Shown here: positions 3,276-50,678 of the stretch, one piece after another
Layout: every line of letters begins with the position of its first letter
How positions within the stretch are numbered: the stretch's first letter is position 1
Source: a virus
Length of the DNA: 64,000 nucleotides
Virus record (IMG/VR): IMGVR_UViG_3300043185_000079
Direction: 5' to 3' (one strand)
Program-made: the position numbers and the translations under genes
The notes under the pieces: generated by a model
Told to the model about the DNA's origin: nothing
Databases searched by the model: none
What the model saw: only the letters and a program-made list of their open reading frames with translations

Positions 3276-4397
3276 ATGAGCCCGCTCGACGCCGTCATCC
3301 TTCGCCTTGCGCGCCACAACAATGATTTCCGCAAGGCACTTCGCGAGGAGATCGCGAAAGCTGGGGCTCGAAACGTTCAGTCCAAGCTGACAAAACCGCA
3401 GGAAAAGATCCTAGCAAAGTACATGGAACAAGGGGGCAGCGCGCAATTTTTCGATGATCTGCCCTCAGCCGTGCAGGCGAGTCTGCGGCGTCTGAAGGAT
3501 CAGGAAACGCTGCACATGGACGCGGACAGATGGTTGTCGGATGCGAGCCTGCGGCGTCGGGCATCCGAGGCGTTTCGTCCCCCCAAGGGAATCGCGGCAG
3601 CAGTTCATGACGGAAAATTGCCTGCTCAAGTTCTGCTGATCTGGAAGTACGTCGCCGAGAAGATGGGAGACCACTTCGACTACAGCGGTGCCGTGTCCTA
3701 CTGGAGGGCGAAGTGCAAGAAGGAGGGGATCGACCTGCCCCCCGAGTTCATCACGGGCCTCGGGGGCAAGGGCGTCACGGCGAACTTCCCCCACAAGACC
3801 GGCGAGCAGATCGAAGACTGGGTCCGCGCGAGACTCAAGAGCGAGGGTCTCATCGCCGAGGCGGGCCAGACGGCGGCCGAGATTGGCCTGTCCATCACGA
3901 GCATCGAGCAGAAGATCCGCGAGGCGAAGACCCGCGTCGAGCAGCACATGCGCGGCATCGAGATGGGCGAGAAGGTCACGCAGCGGAAAAAGTGGCTGGC
4001 CAAGGCGCAGGAGGAACTCGTCGCGCTGGAGCGGCAGCTCGAGGAGGCTCGCCGCGGAGTCACCGTCATCGAGGAGGCAGCCCAGCGTCACGAGGACCAC
4101 CACGCGCCCAGCGTATCATTCGAGGAGCAATTCCAGAAGCTGCTCGCGGAGGCGACGAGGGAGATGTCTCAGCAACAAGTGCTGGACAAGGTGCTCCGCT
4201 CGCTCGCCGAGTTCAACGCTGGGCTCAAGGCTGCCGAAAGCTCCGCGCGCGTGGCAGTTCTCGGAGATCTCTGGGGCGTGCTGGAGCGTGTGTGGGACAA
4301 GATCAAGGGTGTTGTGGCCAGCATCGGCCGGTGGGCGAAGGGACTCTTCTCCTCGGCCACGAAGCTCAATGACCTCCTCGACAAGGCCGGGGCTTGA
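3276..4397 (+). CDS. modular coiled-coil protein with N-terminal ILRLA..DFRKAL motif (putative virion-internal protein)
   Basis: 373-aa ORF with strong codon bias; its N-terminal motif is shared with 8826 and 42309. The function is an inference. Confidence 0.6.
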   Translation: MSPLDAVILRLARHNNDFRKALREEIAKAGARNVQSKLTKPQEKILAKYMEQGGSAQFFDDLPSAVQASLRRLKDQETLHMDADRWLSDASLRRRASEAFRPPKGIAAAVHDGKLPAQVLLIWKYVAEKMGDHFDYSGAVSYWRAKCKKEGIDLPPEFITGLGGKGVTANFPHKTGEQIEDWVRARLKSEGLIAEAGQTAAEIGLSITSIEQKIREAKTRVEQHMRGIEMGEKVTQRKKWLAKAQEELVALERQLEEARRGVTVIEEAAQRHEDHHAPSVSFEEQFQKLLAEATREMSQQQVLDKVLRSLAEFNAGLKAAESSARVAVLGDLWGVLERVWDKIKGVVASIGRWAKGLFSSATKLNDLLDKAGA

Positions 4398-4483
4398 CGT
4401 CGCGTCCGGTCTCGGGTAGAACCCACAGGTCGGCACGGTGCCGGCATCGATCCCCGACCCACGACCACGAAAGGAGCCAAGCG

Positions 4484-4540
4484 ATGTCAGCCGCGACGTA
4501 TCGTCCCTATCCTTGGCTCCGCGGGTCGTGCGGGGCGTGA
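4484..4540 (+). other. putative leader peptide MSAATYRPYPWLRGSCGA inside a long hairpin
   Basis: AAAGGAG RBS; GGAGCCAAG (4473-81) pairs with CTTGGCTCC (4512-20), CACGACC with GGTCGTG, and CCCCG with CGGGG. Confidence 0.45.
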
Positions 4541-4597
4541 TCCAGGCCGAGACCTCGACACACGCCAAGCAGCCCGCGGAGCGGCCCTGACTCACTC

Positions 4598-4684
4598 TGG
4601 TGGATGGGTGCTGCTGGCAAGCACCGGTGGTCTGTAAAACCACCCAGCTTCGCGCTGTCGGGGGTTCGATTCCCTCTCCGCCAA
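4598..4684 (+). tRNA. tRNA-Tyr(GTA), atypical
   Basis: Acceptor TGGTGGA/TCCGCCA, D stem extendable to 6 bp, anticodon arm GTGGT-CTGTAAA-ACCAC, long variable arm, GGGGG-TTCGATT-CCCTC; no encoded CCA. Confidence 0.8.
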
Positions 4685-4688
4685 CCGA

Positions 4689-4771
4689 CGGTCGGTGACC
4701 CGAGCGGCAATGGGGGCGGACTGTAAATCCGCCGCGTTCGCGCTTCGCAGGTTCGAGTCCTGCCCGGCCGA
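4689..4771 (+). tRNA. tRNA-Tyr(GTA)
   Basis: CCC-GAGCGGCAAT-GGG D arm, GCGGA-CTGTAAA-TCCGC, long variable arm, GCAGG-TTCGAGT-CCTGC; acceptor CGGTCGG/CCGGCCG; no encoded CCA. Confidence 0.92.
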
Positions 4772-4814
4772 CGACAAGACGAGGACAGCCCGGAGAGACA
4801 GGTAGAAACGAGAC

Positions 4815-4951
4815 ATGAACATGACCACGAAGCAGCACTTGCTCGCAGGCGACGGGCTTGTCGAGGCGGAAGGCGACGTTCAGGCATGAGGTTCGCGATC
4901 CGCGAGGGCGGGAGGACCGTGGGCGCGGGCGTCCTGGAGGTCAGCGCCTAG
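4815..4951 (+). pseudogene. tuf: elongation factor Tu remnant (C-terminal fragment)
   Basis: 4886-4951 encodes MRFAIREGGRTVGAGVLEVSA*, the conserved EF-Tu C-terminus. It overlaps (ATGA) a 24-aa ORF MNMTTKQHL... in another frame. Confidence 0.85.
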
Positions 4952-4960
4952 GACGTGAAG

Positions 4961-4991
4961 GGGGCCGGGGAGGCGAATCCTCCCCGGCCCC
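4961..4991 (+). terminator. 13-bp GC hairpin ending the tRNA/tuf unit
   Basis: GGGGCCGGGGAGG-cgaat-CCTCCCCGGCCCC; no U tract. Confidence 0.7.
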
Positions 4992-5028
4992 TCGTGTAGA
5001 AGCCTTGTCAGGTCCGGGGCCGGCAGGC

Positions 5029-5055
5029 GTGTAAGACCAGCGAGGAGCCCCGTAC
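5029..5055 (+). promoter_or_regulatory. class II promoter motif GTGTAAG-N15-CGTAC
   Basis: Same bipartite motif with a 15-nt spacer, directly upstream of the DUF3228-like gene. Confidence 0.6.
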
Positions 5056-5832
5056 ATGCCCACGATGCCCACGGTCGCCGTCAGCCGGTTCGTCCGTCGC
5101 CAGACCCCGGAGTCCAGGTTCGGCCACTTCGCCGGGCCGTGGAGCCGCGTCGTCGATCTCGTGATCGAGAACTTCGACCGGGCGCGTCAGGGCTACCGCG
5201 ACGGGGTGATCCTGGTGCCGGTGCCCCCCGAGGGCTTCTTCACGTCCGTCGTGACCCTGCGGGACGGCGACCATCTCGCCGGGACCTACGAGCCCCGGAT
5301 GCCGGGCGAGGAGCCCCGCAAGAGCACCGTCGTCGTCGGCCGCGGCAAGAGCCCCGCCGTCGGTTGCGAGATCGTGCTCTACCGAGCCGACGTCCTGGCC
5401 GAGAACGACGAGCGCTCGGCCGACGCGGAATGGGAGATCATCAGCGTGAACGCCAACCCGGTTGAGGGCCCCGTGCCCATGGACCCCGGAACGCTCATGG
5501 CCAACCATTTCCAGATCAGCGGCGGCACGGCGACCAACATGGACGACGCCGCGTTCGTCGCCACGCTGCGCGAGTCGTTCCTGTGGTGGAGGGACAAGGC
5601 GTACGTCTACGGGGGACGTGATGGGCAGGCGCGCCACGGACGAGGCGAGTGGGTCGACGTGCCCGTCGATCTTCCCATGCGCGACCCGTCCGTCTCCATC
5701 AGCCTCCGCCTGCCGTACCAGATGCTCGCGATCCTCAAGGAGTACCAGACGATGCTCAAGCAGTGGCTGCACGAGAGGATCATCGTGGAGGCCAGGAAGT
5801 TCAAGGCGTCGCTGGCCAGGAAGGACGGATGA
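5056..5832 (+). CDS. DUF3228-like protein fused to a ribbon-helix-helix antitoxin-like fragment
   Basis: FVRRQ, GYRDGV, YEPR..GE.P, IVLY, WEIISVNA, PMDP.T.M.N..GG motifs; tail SVSISLRLP..ML..LKE.YQTMLKQWL. The true start may be 5065. Confidence 0.65.
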   Translation: MPTMPTVAVSRFVRRQTPESRFGHFAGPWSRVVDLVIENFDRARQGYRDGVILVPVPPEGFFTSVVTLRDGDHLAGTYEPRMPGEEPRKSTVVVGRGKSPAVGCEIVLYRADVLAENDERSADAEWEIISVNANPVEGPVPMDPGTLMANHFQISGGTATNMDDAAFVATLRESFLWWRDKAYVYGGRDGQARHGRGEWVDVPVDLPMRDPSVSISLRLPYQMLAILKEYQTMLKQWLHERIIVEARKFKASLARKDG

Positions 5833-5833
5833 C

Positions 5834-6232
5834 GTGCCCAAGACCCGCAAGCAGGAGATCCGTCGGAAGTTCCGCATGGCGGTGTTCCGCCGCGACGGGT
5901 ACCGATGCGTCGTGTGTGGCTTCCAGTCGAGCCCCGAGCGCGCAGACCACGAGATCGACGCGCACCACATCACTCCTCGCGAGCAGCTTCCAAACGGAGG
6001 CTACGTCGCCGAGAACGGAGCCACCCTGTGCGACGCGGCGAAGCAGAACCTTCCGCTCGTCCGTGGCTGTCACTACAGGGCCGAGCAGGTCCTCCTCCGC
6101 ATCTCGCAGGGGTGGACGCCCGGCGTAGGACCGCCCGAGGACCACGAGTACGAGTACACGCCCGAGGCGCTCTACGCGAGGATCGGGTCGAGCCCGGAGA
6201 GGGCGCGCGCGGTGTCCGAGTACCTGAAGTGA
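5834..6232 (+). CDS. HNH endonuclease
   Basis: VFRRDGYRCVVCG...DAHHI...NGATLC...CH. Confidence 0.85.
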   Translation: MPKTRKQEIRRKFRMAVFRRDGYRCVVCGFQSSPERADHEIDAHHITPREQLPNGGYVAENGATLCDAAKQNLPLVRGCHYRAEQVLLRISQGWTPGVGPPEDHEYEYTPEALYARIGSSPERARAVSEYLK

Positions 6233-6685
6233 TGGACGTCTTCCGTGAGCCCGGACGACCAGAGATCCACGTGTGGGACTGGGACGTCGTGTTCTTCCAC
6301 GGAGAGTTCAGGCTTCCGTGAGCCCGGACGACCAGAGATCCACGTGTGGGACTGGGACGTCGTGTTCTTCCACGGAGAGTTCAGGCTCCTCTGCACGGCC
6401 CCTGCCGACGAGAACATCGACGGACATCGGAAGGGTCCGTGCCCGCGGATAACCTCGGAGGTTGTCGGCGTCGATGGCCACCAGCTCGACGAACCGTGGT
6501 CGACACTGGCGAGGCCGGGAGCGCGACTGCACACGGTCTCTGGGAAGACCTACATCCTGCAGGGTCCGAGACGGGAGAGGCACGATCTCGCCGGCAACTC
6601 CGTGATCGACCCGGACTCGTGGTACAACCGTGACCGAGTGCCGAGGGAGGAGAAGCTGCCGTGGTGGCGGAGGATCCTGCGATGA
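6232..6685 (+). pseudogene. hypothetical gene frameshifted by a 73-bp tandem duplication
   Basis: 6240-6312 is repeated at 6313-6385; removing one copy gives a single 126-aa ORF from ATG 6232. Confidence 0.8.
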
Positions 6686-6891
6686 CGTTCCACGACTGCC
6701 TTATGGCATGCGCCGGCAACGGAGATTTCGTGAAGGAGTTCGACCGCCTCCACGGATCCAACCTGGGCCTGCGCGGGAGCGGGCTGGAGCTGGCGATAGA
6801 CGAGGCCACCGGGCGGAGGGACAACGATGACTTCATCAACTTCGTCTACGAGTGCATCTGGCTCCGGCTTCCGCCCGAGGCCAGGCAGTGA
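6682..6891 (+). CDS. small hypothetical protein
   Basis: ATGA overlap with the previous stop; GC3 bias. Confidence 0.7.
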   Translation: MTFHDCLMACAGNGDFVKEFDRLHGSNLGLRGSGLELAIDEATGRRDNDDFINFVYECIWLRLPPEARQ

Positions 6892-6973
6892 CCGGAGAGG
6901 CTCGGCCAGGGCGAGGGTTCTGAGCAGTTGATCTAGAACCTCGGTAAAGCTGGGTATCCCTAGGCAAATTTCC

Positions 6974-8431
6974 GTGCTAAACTACCGAAATCTCGTGAAG
7001 AAGTCGCGCCACTTCTATCTCCACCCGGAGACTAACCCAGGGAAGGTCGCTGCCCTGGAAGCCCTCCACGCCGAGTACGTCAAGTACGTTCGCATCTGCG
7101 TGCAGACCATGATCGACAACCAGAGGCTCAATCTCAAGCGGTCCGAGAAGCAGGCCTTCTTCCAGAAGTCTGAAAAGCTCACGAGCCAGATCCAGAAGAA
7201 CGCCCGCGACCACGCCATCCAGATCGTGAGTACTTGGGCCCAGGCCACCTACGAACGCGCCATCAAAAAGCACCTCACCCAACTCCACAGGTTCGGCCAG
7301 GTCTCCCAGGAGGAACGTCATGCCCTCTGCACCGTGGGAAAGCACCTGATCTCCAATCCCTGGAAACATGTCACCCGGGAGGCCATCGACACCTACTGGT
7401 CCCTCCTGCTCGACCCGGAGATCTCTGGCAACCCTCCCAAGGTGTCCGACCGCATCCCCATGCGGATGTCGGAGAACACCTGCATGCTGGCCGACGCCGA
7501 CGAGGCCGTGGTTGCCCCCATGTGGATCAAGATCTCCACGCTGGCTTCCAGGAAAGTCGTTTGGCTCCCACTCAGTGGAAACCCCTACGTCGAAAAGGCC
7601 GACGACGTGAGCAAGGGAGTTCACGCTCGGAAGGACAAGAGGGGACGCTGGAGGTTTGAGGTCGTCGAGCGCAAGGAGTGGGTCGTCCCTGAACCTCAGC
7701 CAGACGCGCCTAAGATCGGAGTAGATGTCGGTTTGAACGTGGTCACGGCTACATCGGACGGCCGGACGTTTGGTAAAGAGTTGAAACCTAAGTTCGACAA
7801 GCTCTACGAGCGAGTCAGGAATCTCCGGGCGAACCGTCAACGTCAAGGATTGAAGGGGAACAGCCCAAGGCTCGACCGTCTTGAAGACAAGCTCACCGGG
7901 ATGGTGAAGACGATCGCCGGAGAGGTGGCCAACAAACTCGTCAAGAGCGCGCCAGAGGGCACGGTGTTCGTGATCGAAGATCTCGACCTTCGTGGGTGTC
8001 GGGGCCAAAAGAGGTTTGCGTACCGGGCCTTGGCCCGGAGTTTGGAGACGAGGGCGCCGGTGATCAGGGTGAACCCGGCGTACACGTCCCAATGCTGTCC
8101 CTCCTGTGGCTACGTCAGCCGGTCCAACAGGAGGGGAACCGATTTCGTCTGCCGTTCATGTGGCAGGCGTTCTCACGCCGACGTGGTGGGAGGGATCAAC
8201 CTGCTGAGACGTTCTCAGGACGAACAGGTTGGTCTTGGAGATCACCATCGAGACGTGAGGGAGTTGCTGCGAGCGCGATTCCGACTTGCCCGTCAGGGCA
8301 TGAGGACCAGTTCCGCAGGACTGAAAACCGCGCCTGTACCGTCAGGCCGGAGGCTTACTACCGGAGCATCGCCGTCATGGCGGGGCCGGCACAGCCTCGA
8401 ATCAGGAACCCAAGTTTTCCCAAGTTCCTGA
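6974..8431 (+). mobile_element. tnpB: IS200/IS605-family TnpB (RNA-guided endonuclease), no adjacent tnpA
   Basis: RuvC-I IGVDVGLN, RuvC-II FVIEDL, VNPAYTSQCCPSCG, FVCRSCG, HAD...INL; lower GC than the flanks; imperfect hairpin at about 6914-6942 resembles a left end. Confidence 0.92.
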
Positions 8432-33820: not shown

Positions 33821-34119
33821 GCGACAAGAAACCACCTCCAGACTCCCCGGGCAACATCCGGGGACGCATGCTAGTGCTCGGCGATCATGCTCGGCGGGCG
33901 GCGGCCGCCGAGGCCCGTGAGGGAGGCGACTCCGAGAGGGCGTTGGCGAAACACATGAAAGAGATCGAGCCGGCACTAGAGGATCTCAGGCGTCGACTGA
34001 CGAAGTGCAAGAGCCCCCCGAAAAACACTGACCCGAAGATCGAGCGGGGGTCATCCACCAAGCTGGACAAGCCGGGTGCCAGCGAACAGAGCTTGATCGA
34101 TATGCTCGATGATCTCTAG
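33817..34119 (+). CDS. hypothetical protein
   Basis: GTGA coupling with the VWA stop. Confidence 0.6.
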   Translation: MSDKKPPPDSPGNIRGRMLVLGDHARRAAAAEAREGGDSERALAKHMKEIEPALEDLRRRLTKCKSPPKNTDPKIERGSSTKLDKPGASEQSLIDMLDDL

Positions 34120-34417
34120 CCGCGTCGACGTGCAGGCCGGTGCCGCCACCGATCTCACGGTGGCCTCGCGCTCTCCGGCTCCGGCCGTCGCCTTTCTCTA
34201 CCTGGCCTGGAAGATGGGCGCAGATCGTCGGGCGAAGCGTTCTCGGACGCGAGGGGCGGTTGTTCGACGCACAGCTAGTGGTCGATGTACGCCTTGGCTC
34301 AGCGGCACCAGTAGATCTCTGGATCCGTGCCTACGACTCTTATTCCTCGTGAATGGCGCCGGATTGCTAGAGAGGGCCCTCGGCGGTAATTGGCTTATCG
34401 GGGGCCAGATCGTGAGA

Positions 34418-35788
34418 ATGGCCGAGGCCGACCACACAGAGCACTACTTCACCGTCCGCGGCCGGGGCTTCGACCAGAAGAGCTGGAGGACGATCCTGTC
34501 GGTCGTCCGTCAGATCGTGGATGATGCTCGCGAGAACGGTGTTGACGCGACGCTCGAGGGCGACGCTCGACGAGTCATCGTGTCCCCTTCGGGCGAAGGA
34601 ATGCCGCTCGTGATCTGGCGGACGGGCCAGCCCAACATCCCGGAATGCGTCACGGCCACGCCCCCGTTCGACGCCCTCGTCGAGAGCGTGCTCTCCGGGG
34701 TCAAGAAGATCGCCCCGGACATCTTCGAGATGACATCACCGGATGGACGGGACTACCGTCGGATTTTCGCCGACCAGGCAGCCTCGAGAAAGCAAACAGC
34801 CATGACGACCGAAGAGATCATCAGGAAGGCTGCCATCAGAGTGGCTGCCGGCACCCAGGACAAGGTGCTCAAGAGGGAGCTGCTCACCATCTTGAAGGAC
34901 TCCGTCGAGCACTGCGGGGACGAGGGGTGCGCGAGCGAAGAGAAGGAATCTCGTCACGAAGAGGGTAAGTCGGTCGACATCGGGGACTGGCTCCGCGACC
35001 ACGGGTACGAGGAAGCCGCAGACAAGTGGGAGAAGCATGAGGGCAAGATCGAGGAAATCGGCAAGTCGGCCTCCGCGGTCGTCTTTCCCGAAATCCGAGA
35101 TCTCGCGTGGCGCTACGTGCTGGAGTTCTCCGCCGCGAAGCCGACGTCGAAGCTCGCCGCCGCTTCGACCGCGACAAAAGCCGCCGCCGCGGAGCGTATG
35201 GCCAAGAAGTGGATCTCCGACGCCATCAAGCGTCCGGGTCGGGTGCACGAGTATCTCGGGATCCCCGAGGATCAGACGATCCCGATGGCGAAGCTCGACG
35301 CGGCCATCGAGAAGGTTAAGGCCACCGGCAACAAGTCGCTCCTGGCTGCTCTACAACTGGCCAAGCGCCTGAAGGGGATGAAGAAAGCGGCGGCCCCGGA
35401 CAAGGCTGCGGCGAAGTGGAAGACGATGCCCAAGGGGTGGACTGACGAGTCTCGCAAGAAGTTCTGGGAGTCGCTCACTGGTCGGTCCCCGAAGCACAAA
35501 GTCACCGCGTGCATCAAGAGGATGGAGGGCAACGTGTCGGACGCCGGAGCGTTCTGTGCTGCCCTCGCTGATCGTGTCCTCGGCACGACCGACTGGCGGG
35601 GCGAGGACCGCACGGCCCGGGCCAATCCGTTCGACAACGACCGGGTTCGGGCGAGGATCGCATCGACCAATCCGTGGATATCGTACGCGGAAATGGTCGA
35701 TCTCTGTCCCTCGTGTGCAGAACGGATGCACAACCATGGGATCACGCGGATCCACGCCAGTGTCATCCGCCGACTACTCGGCGCTTGA
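34418..35788 (+). CDS. polyprotein-like modular protein with multiple [RK]xA junctions
   Basis: GGTA-N6-TTAT upstream; IIRKAAIRVAA..KRELL motif; modules KKWISDAIKRPG.. and AKWKTMPKGWT.. each follow an RxA or KxA site. Confidence 0.7.
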   Translation: MAEADHTEHYFTVRGRGFDQKSWRTILSVVRQIVDDARENGVDATLEGDARRVIVSPSGEGMPLVIWRTGQPNIPECVTATPPFDALVESVLSGVKKIAPDIFEMTSPDGRDYRRIFADQAASRKQTAMTTEEIIRKAAIRVAAGTQDKVLKRELLTILKDSVEHCGDEGCASEEKESRHEEGKSVDIGDWLRDHGYEEAADKWEKHEGKIEEIGKSASAVVFPEIRDLAWRYVLEFSAAKPTSKLAAASTATKAAAAERMAKKWISDAIKRPGRVHEYLGIPEDQTIPMAKLDAAIEKVKATGNKSLLAALQLAKRLKGMKKAAAPDKAAAKWKTMPKGWTDESRKKFWESLTGRSPKHKVTACIKRMEGNVSDAGAFCAALADRVLGTTDWRGEDRTARANPFDNDRVRARIASTNPWISYAEMVDLCPSCAERMHNHGITRIHASVIRRLLGA

Positions 35789-46706: not shown

Positions 46707-49700
46707 ATGCTCGATTTTCACACCAATCACGTCGCAGTGCCCAAGGATCCAAAGACCGAAGCTGATCTTCATGACGACGGCGCCGCGATGAAAACGATGA
46801 GGCCATCTCCGAAGACATACAGCTACGACGAAGCGTACGTAGCTGCCCGCGAGGCCTTCGGTGGAGACGACTTGGCGGCAAGCACGTGGGTCACGAAGTA
46901 TGCGTTGCGCGACCTCAATGGTCAGATCATCGAGCGATCTCCCGCCGACATGCACCAGAGATTGGCGAGAGCTTTCGCGGCGATCGAGGCACGTTACCCG
47001 AACTCGATGTCGGAGGACGAGATCTTCGCGCTCCTCGCGGACTGGACGGTGGTCCCCCAGGGGTCGCCGATGAGCGGGGTCGGGAATCCGTACAAGTTCC
47101 AGAGCGTCTCAAACTGCTTCGTCGTCCCCTCTCCCGAGGATTCCTACGGAGGCATCCTCCTCGTTGATCAGCTCCAGGCGCAGATCATGAAGAGGCGCGG
47201 GGGTGTCGGCTTCGACGTGTCGACGATCCGCCCGAAGGGCTTGCCCACTGCCAACGCCGCGCACACCACCGACGGTATCGGGATCTTCATGGAGAGATTC
47301 TCCAGGACATGCCGCGAGGTCGCCCAGGGAGGACGGCGTGGCGCCCTGATGCTCACGTGCGACGTGCACCATCCCGAGATCCTCACGTTCATCCGAATCA
47401 AGAACGATCTGACCAGATGCAAGGCGTGTGGCCACGGCGAGCGCATGAAGGTCACCGGAGCGAACGTCAGCGTCCGCCTCACCGACGAGTTCCTCAATGC
47501 AGTCGAGCGTGGCGAGAAGTATCAGCAGCGCTGGCCCGTGGACCGTTCTGATGTTCCTTCCATCGAGAACTGGGTCGACGCCAGGGCGATCTGGGAGGAG
47601 ATCACGCAGAATGCCCGGGACAGCGCCGAGCCCGGCCTGCTGTTCTGGGACAACATTCTGCGCGAGAGCCCAGCGGACTGCTACGCGGACGTCGGCTACC
47701 AGACCACGAGCACGAACCCGTGTTCCGAGATTCCTCTCTCCCCGTGGGACTCGTGCCGGCTGATGGCGATCAATCTCTCCAATTTCGTGTCCGATCCGTT
47801 CACGGACAACGCCGACTTCGATTGGCGCAGGCTGTCTGAAGTCGCCAAGAGGGCGCAGCGGCTGATGGACGATCTCGTTGACATCGAGATCGAGCACGTC
47901 GATCGGATCCTGGCGAAGATCGACAGGGACCACGAATCTGAGGATGTCAAGCGTGTCGAGAGAGATCTCTGGGAGCGTATCCGTGAGACCGGAGTGAACG
48001 GTCGGCGGACCGGGCTCGGCGTGACGGCCGTGGGCGACACCGTCGCCATGATGGGCATGAAATACGGCAGCGACCAGTCGATTGACTTCGTCGAGCGCAT
48101 GTACCGGGCGCTGGCCGTCGCCGCCTACGAGGCGTCGGTGGACATGGCCAGCGAGCGGGGATGTTTCCCGGCCTACGCCTTCCGCAAGGAGGCTGGACAC
48201 CCTTTCATCGAGCGCATCCTGGACGCCGCGCCGCCCGAGCTGAGGGTGAAGTACGAGCGTCATGGCCGACGTAACATCTCGTGTCTCACGACAGCCCCGA
48301 CGGGCAGTGTCAGCATCCTGACCCAGACATCATCTGGGATCGAGCCGGTGTTCCGCGCCATGTACACGCGTCGGAAAAAGATCAACCCCAGCGACGAGGG
48401 AACGCGCGTGGATGATGTCGATGCCCACGGCGACAGATGGCAGCATTTCACCGTGAAGGAACACGGGTTCAAGCGTTGGCAGGACGTCACGGGGAAGACC
48501 GACGAGGACTTCGCAGAGAGTCCGTACGCAGGAGCACAGGCCGAGGAGATCGATTGGCTGCAGCGGGTGAGGCTCCAGGCAGCGGCCGGTCGATGGATCG
48601 ATCACGCCATCAGCTCGTGTCTGGTTGCAGGCGAGAGTTTGGTGTGGACCGACAAAGGACTCCTCGATATCGAGGAGCTGGCCGGACACGCGGAACGGGG
48701 ACAGTTCGCGCCCGTCGACATGCAGGTTTCGTCCATTAACGCCGCCGGGACCCCGGCGCAGATCTCTCAGGGTTTCAACAACGGCCTCGCCAGGGTGTTG
48801 AGGATCTCATTCCCGAACGGGTTTGAGATTTCCTGTACCCCCAACCACAAGCTCGTGGTTCTGGACGAGAATTACACGCAGGTCTGGAAGGAAGCTGCGA
48901 GTCTCCGGCCGGGAGACGTCGTGGTGGGCCGCAAGGGAATCAATCTGTGGAATGATGGCAGCAAGTGCCTGACTCGACTCGTCGGCACGCCCTTCCAGTA
49001 CGAGCACAGGACCAACGCGAAGGATGTCCGCATCCCGAAGGACATGACACCCGCGCTGGCGAGGCTTCTCGGGTACATGTGCAGTGACGGGTTCTGGTCC
49101 GAGAACTCGATTGGCTTGTCGCAGCAGCGCAACGATGCTGCGGAGGACTTCGCAGGTCTCGTGGGCGACCTGTTCGATCTTGAGGTCTCGGAGAAGAAAG
49201 ACGAGCGTGGCGATAACCTTTTCCAGTACGTCGCCAACTCGCGCGAGGCGGCGGCGTTCATGCAGTGGATCGGAATCCGGCATCACGATGATCTCGTCGT
49301 CCCGCTCGCAATCCGCAGGTCGGGGCGCCAGTGCGTCAAGGAGTTCATCCGCGGCTTGACTATCAATGGATTCGTGTCGAGAGACAGCCTCGGCATCACG
49401 ACCTCTATCTGCCTGCCATTCTTGCGACAAGTGCAGCAGCTCCTGCTGAACCTCGGGATCGAGGCCGGCATCGACCAGTGCGCGGAGGAAGACCTGCGGA
49501 TGCTGCCCGACGGTAAGGAGTACCGCTGCAAGGATGCGTGGGTGCTTCGCATCTCCCACTCGGAGGAGGCCGAACGCTTTGTTCGGCTCGTGGGCTCTGT
49601 GGAGGATAGCGAAGACAAGTTCCACCGGGCCTCGCGCCCCAAGTTCCACCGGGCCTCGCGCCCCAAGCTCTGCGGCGAGGTCCCCGATCACGGTCTGCGG

Positions 49701-50678
49701 GAGCGATTCAGGGACCTACACCTGGGGCACGTCCGGTCGAACCGCCTGTACGAGATCTTCCACTCCCTCACCTGTGCCGACAAGCGTGGGCGGTGGCTCA
49801 ACCGAGAATCGCTTCTGGAGATGGCTGACGTGGGGCTCGATGTGCCGCCGATCCTGCTCGATCCAACGTACGTCTTCCGTCCCATCAAGACAATCGAGGA
49901 CGGGGGGATCCGGCAGACCTTCGATGTCGAGGTCCCCGATGGACATGCCTACGTCGCAAACGGGATCATCTCACACAACACGATCAACCTCCCCAAGGAC
50001 GTGTCCACCGAGGTCGTCCGCGACATCTACACGACGGCGTGGAAGATGGGTGTCAAGGGGATCACCGTCTACCGCGACACAGCCAGGGACGGTGTGCTGA
50101 TCGAGAAGAAGTCGGAGTTCGTGCAGCACAGTGCTCCGAAACGCCCCGAGGTACTCCCGTGCGACATCCACCGCACGCGCGTCAAGATTGTCGAGGACCA
50201 GTACGAGGACTGGATCTTCTTCGTCGGACTGTACGACGGGAAGCCCTTCGAGATTTTCGGCGGGACCACGGAGAACATCGAGCTTCCGCGCAAGGTGGAG
50301 AGGGGCTGGATCGTCAAGAGAGCCTTCAAGACGGGCGGGAAGTACGATCTCTGTTACGGCGAATCCGACGATCCCTTCAAGATCAAGGACATCGTTCGGC
50401 AGTTTGACAACCCGGAGCGAGGCTGGGCGACTCGGATGGTCTCCTTGTCGTTGCGGCACGGGGCTCCGATCCAGTACGTCGTGGAGCAGCTCCAGCGCGA
50501 TCGGGCGTCGGATATGTTCGACTTCGCCAGGACGATGGCCAGGGTCCTCAAGCGCTACATCCCCGACGGATCGACTGCGTCGCACAACCTCTGTGCGAGC
50601 TGTGGCGCCGAGGACAGCCTGCGGTACCAGGAAGGTTGTCTTCTCTGCGTCTCGTGTGGATCGAGCAAGTGCGGATAA
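46707..50678 (+). CDS. nrdJ: class II (B12-dependent) ribonucleotide reductase with intein
   Basis: SNCF, GGVG, QGGRRGALM, EPGLLF, TNPCSEI, APTGSVS, SSGIEP, KGITVYRD, C-terminal Zn ribbon; the start may be 46788. Confidence 0.95.
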   Translation: MLDFHTNHVAVPKDPKTEADLHDDGAAMKTMRPSPKTYSYDEAYVAAREAFGGDDLAASTWVTKYALRDLNGQIIERSPADMHQRLARAFAAIEARYPNSMSEDEIFALLADWTVVPQGSPMSGVGNPYKFQSVSNCFVVPSPEDSYGGILLVDQLQAQIMKRRGGVGFDVSTIRPKGLPTANAAHTTDGIGIFMERFSRTCREVAQGGRRGALMLTCDVHHPEILTFIRIKNDLTRCKACGHGERMKVTGANVSVRLTDEFLNAVERGEKYQQRWPVDRSDVPSIENWVDARAIWEEITQNARDSAEPGLLFWDNILRESPADCYADVGYQTTSTNPCSEIPLSPWDSCRLMAINLSNFVSDPFTDNADFDWRRLSEVAKRAQRLMDDLVDIEIEHVDRILAKIDRDHESEDVKRVERDLWERIRETGVNGRRTGLGVTAVGDTVAMMGMKYGSDQSIDFVERMYRALAVAAYEASVDMASERGCFPAYAFRKEAGHPFIERILDAAPPELRVKYERHGRRNISCLTTAPTGSVSILTQTSSGIEPVFRAMYTRRKKINPSDEGTRVDDVDAHGDRWQHFTVKEHGFKRWQDVTGKTDEDFAESPYAGAQAEEIDWLQRVRLQAAAGRWIDHAISSCLVAGESLVWTDKGLLDIEELAGHAERGQFAPVDMQVSSINAAGTPAQISQGFNNGLARVLRISFPNGFEISCTPNHKLVVLDENYTQVWKEAASLRPGDVVVGRKGINLWNDGSKCLTRLVGTPFQYEHRTNAKDVRIPKDMTPALARLLGYMCSDGFWSENSIGLSQQRNDAAEDFAGLVGDLFDLEVSEKKDERGDNLFQYVANSREAAAFMQWIGIRHHDDLVVPLAIRRSGRQCVKEFIRGLTINGFVSRDSLGITTSICLPFLRQVQQLLLNLGIEAGIDQCAEEDLRMLPDGKEYRCKDAWVLRISHSEEAERFVRLVGSVEDSEDKFHRASRPKFHRASRPKLCGEVPDHGLRERFRDLHLGHVRSNRLYEIFHSLTCADKRGRWLNRESLLEMADVGLDVPPILLDPTYVFRPIKTIEDGGIRQTFDVEVPDGHAYVANGIISHNTINLPKDVSTEVVRDIYTTAWKMGVKGITVYRDTARDGVLIEKKSEFVQHSAPKRPEVLPCDIHRTRVKIVEDQYEDWIFFVGLYDGKPFEIFGGTTENIELPRKVERGWIVKRAFKTGGKYDLCYGESDDPFKIKDIVRQFDNPERGWATRMVSLSLRHGAPIQYVVEQLQRDRASDMFDFARTMARVLKRYIPDGSTASHNLCASCGAEDSLRYQEGCLLCVSCGSSKCG
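48618..49979 (+). mobile_element. intein (454 aa) with LAGLIDADG-type domain in nrdJ
   Basis: AISS|CLVAGES...TPNHKL...LLGYMCSDG...YVANGIISHN|TINLP. Confidence 0.95.

Follow-up and report, generated by a model that had tools for sequence, protein, structure and literature searches.

The short run of EF-Tu sequence that lies behind two tRNA-Tyr genes in the viral DNA analysed here (IMG/VR record IMGVR_UViG_3300043185_000079, whose whole 64,000-nucleotide stretch is called the window) is very probably a recently inactivated copy, or pseudogene remnant, of a phage-borne EF-Tu gene (tuf). The homology of each piece of this stub, the breakpoints between the pieces, the synteny of the locus and the presence of an intact gene in a close relative can all be read directly from the alignments (Table 1). 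The original prediction of a hidden EF-Tu C-terminal peptide is borne out: the 21-codon ORF encodes MRFAIREGGRTVGAGVLEVSA, in which the 15 residues RFAIREGGRTVGAGV agree at every position with the C-terminal motif found in genuine EF-Tu genes, a match that lies far beyond chance. The two tRNA-Tyr genes ahead of the peptide, both called by ARAGORN, and the strong hairpin behind it had also been correctly recognised. The hallmarks of EF-Tu itself are gone, with both the GTP-binding domain and its GHVDHGKT P-loop and the three-domain length of about 390 residues absent, and codons 1-9 and the last 23 codons remaining. A tblastn search of the 64-kb window with four phage EF-Tu queries recovered no other EF-Tu sequence, and its minus-strand matches revealed an inverted piece within the stub itself. 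Outside the window the phage genome may contain another, intact tuf, which would leave the interpretation of the stub as it is.

Central to this reading is L055, a 7.8-kb metagenome contig that we found by using the conserved tuf leader as a DNA pattern against a metagenome collection. Blastn comparisons show it to be collinear with the window to either side of the locus, the matched flanking blocks being 83-92% identical, and exactly at the site of the stub it carries an intact 385-aa tuf, which begins MNMTTKKHLNVGTIGHVDHGKT, ends PGMRFAIREGGRTVGAGVVLEVSA followed by the stop codon, and scores 534.6 bits on the NCBIfam model NF000766 (cut-off 449). Pieces A, C', B' and D of the stub all map onto this bona fide EF-Tu gene. 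The weak likeness of MNMTTKQHL to an EF-Tu N-terminus, noticed in the original prediction, is thereby seen to be real, and so is the proposed EF-Tu remnant with both gene ends kept. L055 additionally harbours, at 4466-4852 between its tRNA-Tyr and the tuf leader, a PD-(D/E)XK endonuclease gene (PF11645, E 4e-15), the corresponding site in the window being taken up by the second tRNA-Tyr; this gene may be a free-standing homing endonuclease beside tuf.

Table 1. Features of the stub and its surroundings in the window, with the matching positions in the relative L055
Feature	Window position	Strand	L055 position	Remarks
Upstream 373-aa gene	3564-4398		790-1624	90% identity (blastn)
Region before tRNA-Tyr	4388-4603		4163-4382	83% identity (blastn)
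Promoter-like element TTGACG-N17-TAGAAC ahead of the tRNA-Tyr unit	4394-4422	+		Read from the sequence; putative function
tRNA-Tyr(GTA) copy 1, atypical	4598-4686	+		ARAGORN
tRNA-Tyr(GTA) copy 2	4689-4772	+		ARAGORN; Rfam tRNA 44.7 bits
Leader and first 9 codons of tuf	4768-4841		4858-4933	92% identity (blastn)
Conserved tuf leader with native ribosome-binding region	4773-4814	+		Aligned with L043 and L048; 92% to L055 together with piece A
Piece A, tuf codons 1-9 (MNMTTKQHL)	4815-4841	+		L055 tuf starts MNMTTKKHL; 24/27 nt identical
24-codon ORF (ORF1)	4815-4889	+		Reads MNMTTKQHLLAGDGLVEAEGDVQA, then stop
Piece C', inverted tuf codons 350-361 (L055 numbering)	4842-4877	-		Reverse complement reads VAFRLDKPVACE
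Piece B', inverted tuf codons 10-12 (CGACGTT)	4874-4880	-		Looked at first like 5 nt of filler
Piece D, last 23 codons of tuf and stop	4881-4951	+		Contains the 21-codon ORF
Tuf end, hairpin and DUF3228-like gene	4883-5999		5993-7193	85% identity (blastn)
21-codon ORF	4886-4951	+		Reads MRFAIREGGRTVGAGVLEVSA, then stop
Native tuf-distal hairpin	4960-4992	+		14-bp GC stem; -35.3 kcal/mol, z -4.5; 0/200 shuffles fold as well

After codon 9 the homology of piece A to intact genes ends. The residues that piece C' encodes on the minus strand, VAFRLDKPVACE, normally precede PGMRFA, and the piece matches the expected codons at 29/36 nt in L043, 27/36 in L048 (two further viral tuf loci, see below) and 30/36 in L055, compared with a mean best match of 21.4 for control 36-mers; in blastn, L055 5954-5990 aligns with window 4877-4841. 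Piece B' is short enough to need a control of its own: read in reverse complement, the 11 nt at 4874-4884 have a single exact match in L055 (4930-4940, codons 9-12), immediately beyond the native end of piece A, and 4 of 885 control 11-mers match anywhere in that contig. Piece D follows L055 5990-6064 codon by codon, including both unusual AGG arginine codons, with a few point changes, and lacks one GTC codon and one junction base; across the 21-codon ORF, the DNA differs from the intact gene by that missing codon and one substitution (ACC/ACG). The three junctions fall within 45 nt and display microhomologies of 1-4 nt (G, CGAC, CAGG), of which the CGAC shared by B' and C' marks the deletion junction and CAGG (4881-4884) the right inversion junction. 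The inverted segments derive from both ends of the lost interval, and relative to L055 the window is short of 1,017 nt of tuf interior in addition to the codon and the junction base. The internal loss of about 1.1 kb in the original prediction therefore holds as to size, about 1 kb being gone, but not as to form: this is no simple internal deletion, as the tuf sequence at 4842-4880 is inverted. For the same reason ORF1 ends in a mere antisense reading of that piece, LAGDGLVEAEGD.

Very probably, then, the tuf interior (codons 10-361, 1,056 nt) was inverted and 1,017 nt inside the inverted block were deleted, so that of the gene only codons 1-9 and the last 23 codons are left, with 39 nt of inverted sequence between them. 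A model built accordingly from L055, in which 4934-5989 is inverted and all but 39 nt of the inverted block deleted, aligns to the window from end to end. Microhomology-mediated complex rearrangements of the template-switching type combine inversion with deletion, and the stub is like them in both respects and in the short microhomologies at its junctions. As order and mechanism are read back from the product, the route may have comprised either two steps, inversion and then deletion, or one microhomology-mediated template-switching event; an intermediate with the whole tuf interior inverted was not found. Mobile elements near tuf, namely the PD-(D/E)XK gene in L055, the HNH genes in the window and in another tuf locus, L045, and TnpB, are a plausible source of the initiating break, and we found nothing that ties the PD-(D/E)XK, HNH or TnpB genes near tuf to the junctions.

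Complex junctions packed within 70 nt of a metagenome-type assembly could in principle be chimeric, in which case the stub would be an assembly artefact, or a minority defective allele, of a real phage with an intact tuf. We consider this very unlikely. The inverted pieces, of 36 and 7 nt, are in our judgement too short for the usual assembly-graph errors, and the junction microhomologies are typical of real rearrangements. Furthermore, the Logan assembly of SRR13020435, compared by gene spacing, contains the downstream gene in identical form, separated from the upstream gene by a gap of the same 659 nt, and the recurrence of this gap in an independent assembly argues against an assembler-specific artefact. 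The separate loss of a tRNA array in the same contig, described below, also fits real erosion.

Because the promoter-like element, the tRNA-Tyr genes, the leader and the hairpin survive around it, the stub is probably still transcribed together with the tRNA-Tyr genes; translation of the 24-codon ORF may begin at the former tuf start codon. The second tRNA-Tyr copy aligns with the tRNA-Tyr that precedes tuf in L043, L048 and L033, and the first shares only 53-68% identity with the tRNA-Tyr genes set against it, the second copy of the window included, its best Rfam match being the tRNA-Sec model at 35.7 bits, under the threshold of 47. Besides the two tRNAs, no Rfam family was detected in the stub region. 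L055 has two copies of the promoter-like element, GCTTGAC...TAGAGT (at about 1618) and GCTTGAC...TAGAAT (at about 4165), which the window joins into one; a strict scan of 4300-5100 returned neither sigma-70 promoters nor terminators, and the element at 4394-4422 did not pass it. The hairpin has a counterpart at the same place in L055, with compensatory changes in the stem (GGUUCC/GGAACC against GGGGCC/GGCCCC). Its stem is strong but is followed by no U-tract, and in a consensus scan it did not match canonical terminator criteria; as a terminator or a processing stem, it may still end or stabilise the tRNA-Tyr transcript. The whole stub RNA has no unusual structure (z -0.88).

Both mini-ORFs are most likely by-products without a function of their own. 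The original prediction held that the 21-aa piece keeps its own ATG through an ATGA overlap, here the four nucleotides shared by the 24-codon and the 21-codon ORFs, and this ATG proves to be in no sense special: it goes back to an internal Met codon of the intact gene, that of GMRFA, which the clade conserves, while the overlapping TGA lies inside an ATG-AGG that the intact L055 tuf has as well, and the overlap is incidental. A functional 21-aa (or 24-aa) peptide, for instance a mimic of the EF-Tu C-terminus that serves as a decoy for host factors binding or modifying this segment and is made by ATGA-coupled translation from the tuf start, would be in keeping with the retention of the native leader and start codon, with the overlap of the ORFs, with the near identity of piece D to the end of L055 tuf and with the known role of EF-Tu as a target or component of the anti-phage systems Lit, type IV Thoeris and Avs7 (PMC13581612). 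We give such a peptide very little chance, given that both the ATG and the TGA were already part of the intact ancestral gene, that a 21-aa excerpt of two domain III beta strands is unlikely to fold, and that the stub is a singleton, two motif scans of IMG/VR viral contigs having turned up no second one of its kind. The original prediction itself took an intact tuf in relatives to favour simple decay over a functional peptide, and L055 has kept just such a gene.

The degree of preservation bears on the same question. The inverted piece C', which cannot be translated, yields clean EF-Tu codons when read on the minus strand, and its conservation toward L055 is similar to that of the flanks, so selection is not needed to explain the perfect motif, which speaks for recency instead. 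Piece D, with one substitution and one codon loss in 66 nt, is more conserved than the surrounding sequence (about 85%), which could hint at constraint; the same is to be expected, however, of the best-conserved part of a gene that had stayed intact until a short time ago. Very doubtful, too, is the idea that the stub has been kept because the tuf start and the ATGA coupling still yield the 21-aa peptide as a decoy or pseudo-substrate for host toxins or defence proteins that recognise this part of EF-Tu. Doc-type kinases would be a candidate, directed at the Thr of GGRTVGAG, presumably the residue that the Doc toxin phosphorylates; were this true, the phage would protect host translation without the cost of a full tuf.

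The family to which the inactivated gene belongs emerged from scans of IMG/VR with the back-translated EF-Tu C-terminal motif, in a longer and then in a shorter core version. Whereas the longer motif gave 17 matches, the shorter one also picked up a 372-kb viral contig on which a full-length EF-Tu gene sits amid an array of 22 tRNAs, and a query with this EF-Tu protein led to 29 viral loci with full-length EF-Tu among tRNAs, most of them on contigs of 190-619 kb. These loci show that a sizeable clade of huge phages carries its own tuf inside tRNA arrays. The phage homologues pass the NCBIfam EF-Tu subfamily models, with 532-535 bits on NF000766 for intact ones, and fall just under the equivalog cut-off of TIGR00485 (518.9 and 506.8 against 522.4). 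Huge phages have been reported to encode 'elongation factors G, Tu and Ts' (Al-Shayeb et al. 2020, PMC7162821), and the stub is like these genes in that it derives from such a gene and sits in a phage tRNA region, but unlike them it is destroyed, with no GTPase domain, no domain II and 9 + 23 sense codons left. With bacterial EF-Tu as modelled by NF000766 and TIGR00485 it likewise has RFAIREGGRTVGAGV in common, yet the window fragment cannot be a member.

Several traits place the stub within this clade. Most clade EF-Tu proteins have Met instead of Leu before RFA, as does the window; the EF-Tu of L048 ends in GAGVVLEVSA, and those of L033 and L050 begin with NMTQKQH, both window-like features. 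A tRNA-Tyr(GTA) gene lies directly upstream of tuf in L043 (in two copies), L048, L033/L050 and L055, and downstream L043, L048 and L033/L050 share with the window a tRNA-Leu CAA/TAA pair. In the window the module order tRNA-Tyr, conserved leader, tuf and GC hairpin is found at the syntenic site. Elsewhere in the clade tuf is preceded by tRNA-Asp, not tRNA-Tyr. The window belongs to the broad huge-phage group, as its RecD2 and DUF3228-like proteins share 45-46% identity with proteins of the 372-kb record. Among sequenced phages there is no close match: blastn and megablast with the locus and with 25 kb returned tRNA-Tyr similarity or nothing, and tblastn with two flanking proteins returned only one distant match, in a Microcystis jumbo phage; a search of viral contigs with the DUF3228-like protein found no relatives. 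Two other tuf copies are also irregular. In L045 (3882-5125) the gene looks damaged, its first 16 codons, P-loop included, being missing where it abuts an HNH fragment, and in L031 (4960-5170) an extra T in a run of nine T shifts the frame, which may be a sequencing error.

Residence in the phage clade also bears on the captured tRNA-tuf unit of the original prediction, a claim that is not supported: the tRNA-Tyr-leader-tuf-hairpin unit is at home in the huge phages, and the loss of the tuf interior happened in place. Bacterial tRNA-tufB operons are of the type thrU-tyrU-glyT-thrT-tufB, and the window resembles them in having co-oriented tRNA genes, including tRNA-Tyr, upstream of tuf, so that the phage might have captured a host tRNA-Tyr-tufB unit that then lost its interior; in a variant, the tuf 3' end would be the core of an attachment site, and host tuf genes do occur at prophage borders in IMG/VR. 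We regard the probability of either version as close to negligible. Unlike the operon, the window has only tRNA-Tyr ahead of the stub, without the tRNA-Thr/Gly set, in an arrangement that is a trait of the phage sub-clade and that gives way to tRNA-Asp in other clade members. The stub shares the clade's own features (the MNMTTK start, GMRFA, the LEVSA end, AGG codons and the leader) and occupies its syntenic site. An attachment-site core would need neither the leader nor both gene ends, all of which are present, and among the neighbours tested (the DUF3228-like gene, HNH and TnpB) no integrase was found. The 17 matches of the longer motif, considered as candidates for such capture or attachment, were ordinary host tuf genes at prophage edges, none of them stub-like. 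Among the viral and metagenome sequences compared, the closest were phage or metagenome loci with clade-specific ends. An ancient capture of tuf at the root of the clade is possible and would be a different event from capture of a host unit by this phage.

Inactivation of tuf is accompanied by a second loss. The window is without the 2.5 kb at L055 1625-4162, a block made up of an ORF and seven tRNA genes (Pro, Arg, Pro, Pro, Leu, Leu, Leu), and the junction, at window 4388-4399, lies in the repeated promoter-like GCTTGAC element. A Pro-Arg-Pro-Pro-Leu-Leu array precedes tRNA-Tyr-tuf in L043, L048, L033/L050 and L055, and the window has neither this array nor an intact tuf. As L043, L048 and L033/L050 carry the array too, its loss in the lineage of the window is the simpler reading.

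The remaining genes mark the window as part of a large, novel, high-GC (about 62%) phage; among them are an intein-bearing ribonucleotide reductase, a RecD2-type helicase, HNH and TnpB. The large subunit of the reductase (46707-50678) is split by an intein with a LAGLIDADG endonuclease domain. The TnpB-like gene at 6974-8431 (Cas12f1-like TNB and OrfB_IS605) encodes a protein 84% identical to the copies in L033 and L050 (3-863) and is 83% identical in DNA to L055 7196-7846; since that copy lies at a different position and in the opposite orientation, the gene looks mobile within the phage clade. A 559-aa protein (34109-35788) matches the Fusellovirus VP2 capsid/DNA-binding family in residues 366-426 (PF25632, E 4e-11), a segment that is unusual in a bacterial-type phage context.

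The stub thus represents what is left of a phage gene of a kind already known; it is a tidy and instructive case, though an ordinary one. Phages purge dead DNA quickly and remnants of this sort are rarely caught, which makes it probable that the inactivation is recent. What had appeared as a hidden peptide becomes a well-documented case of gene decay in a very large phage, and its breakpoints, readable to the base, provide a natural example of inversion plus deletion with microhomology. For annotators it carries the warning that a phage may show a perfect EF-Tu motif without having captured host DNA. For the huge phages themselves, it indicates that at least one lineage can do without the translation module formed by the tRNA array and EF-Tu and is shedding it, while a close relative keeps both.
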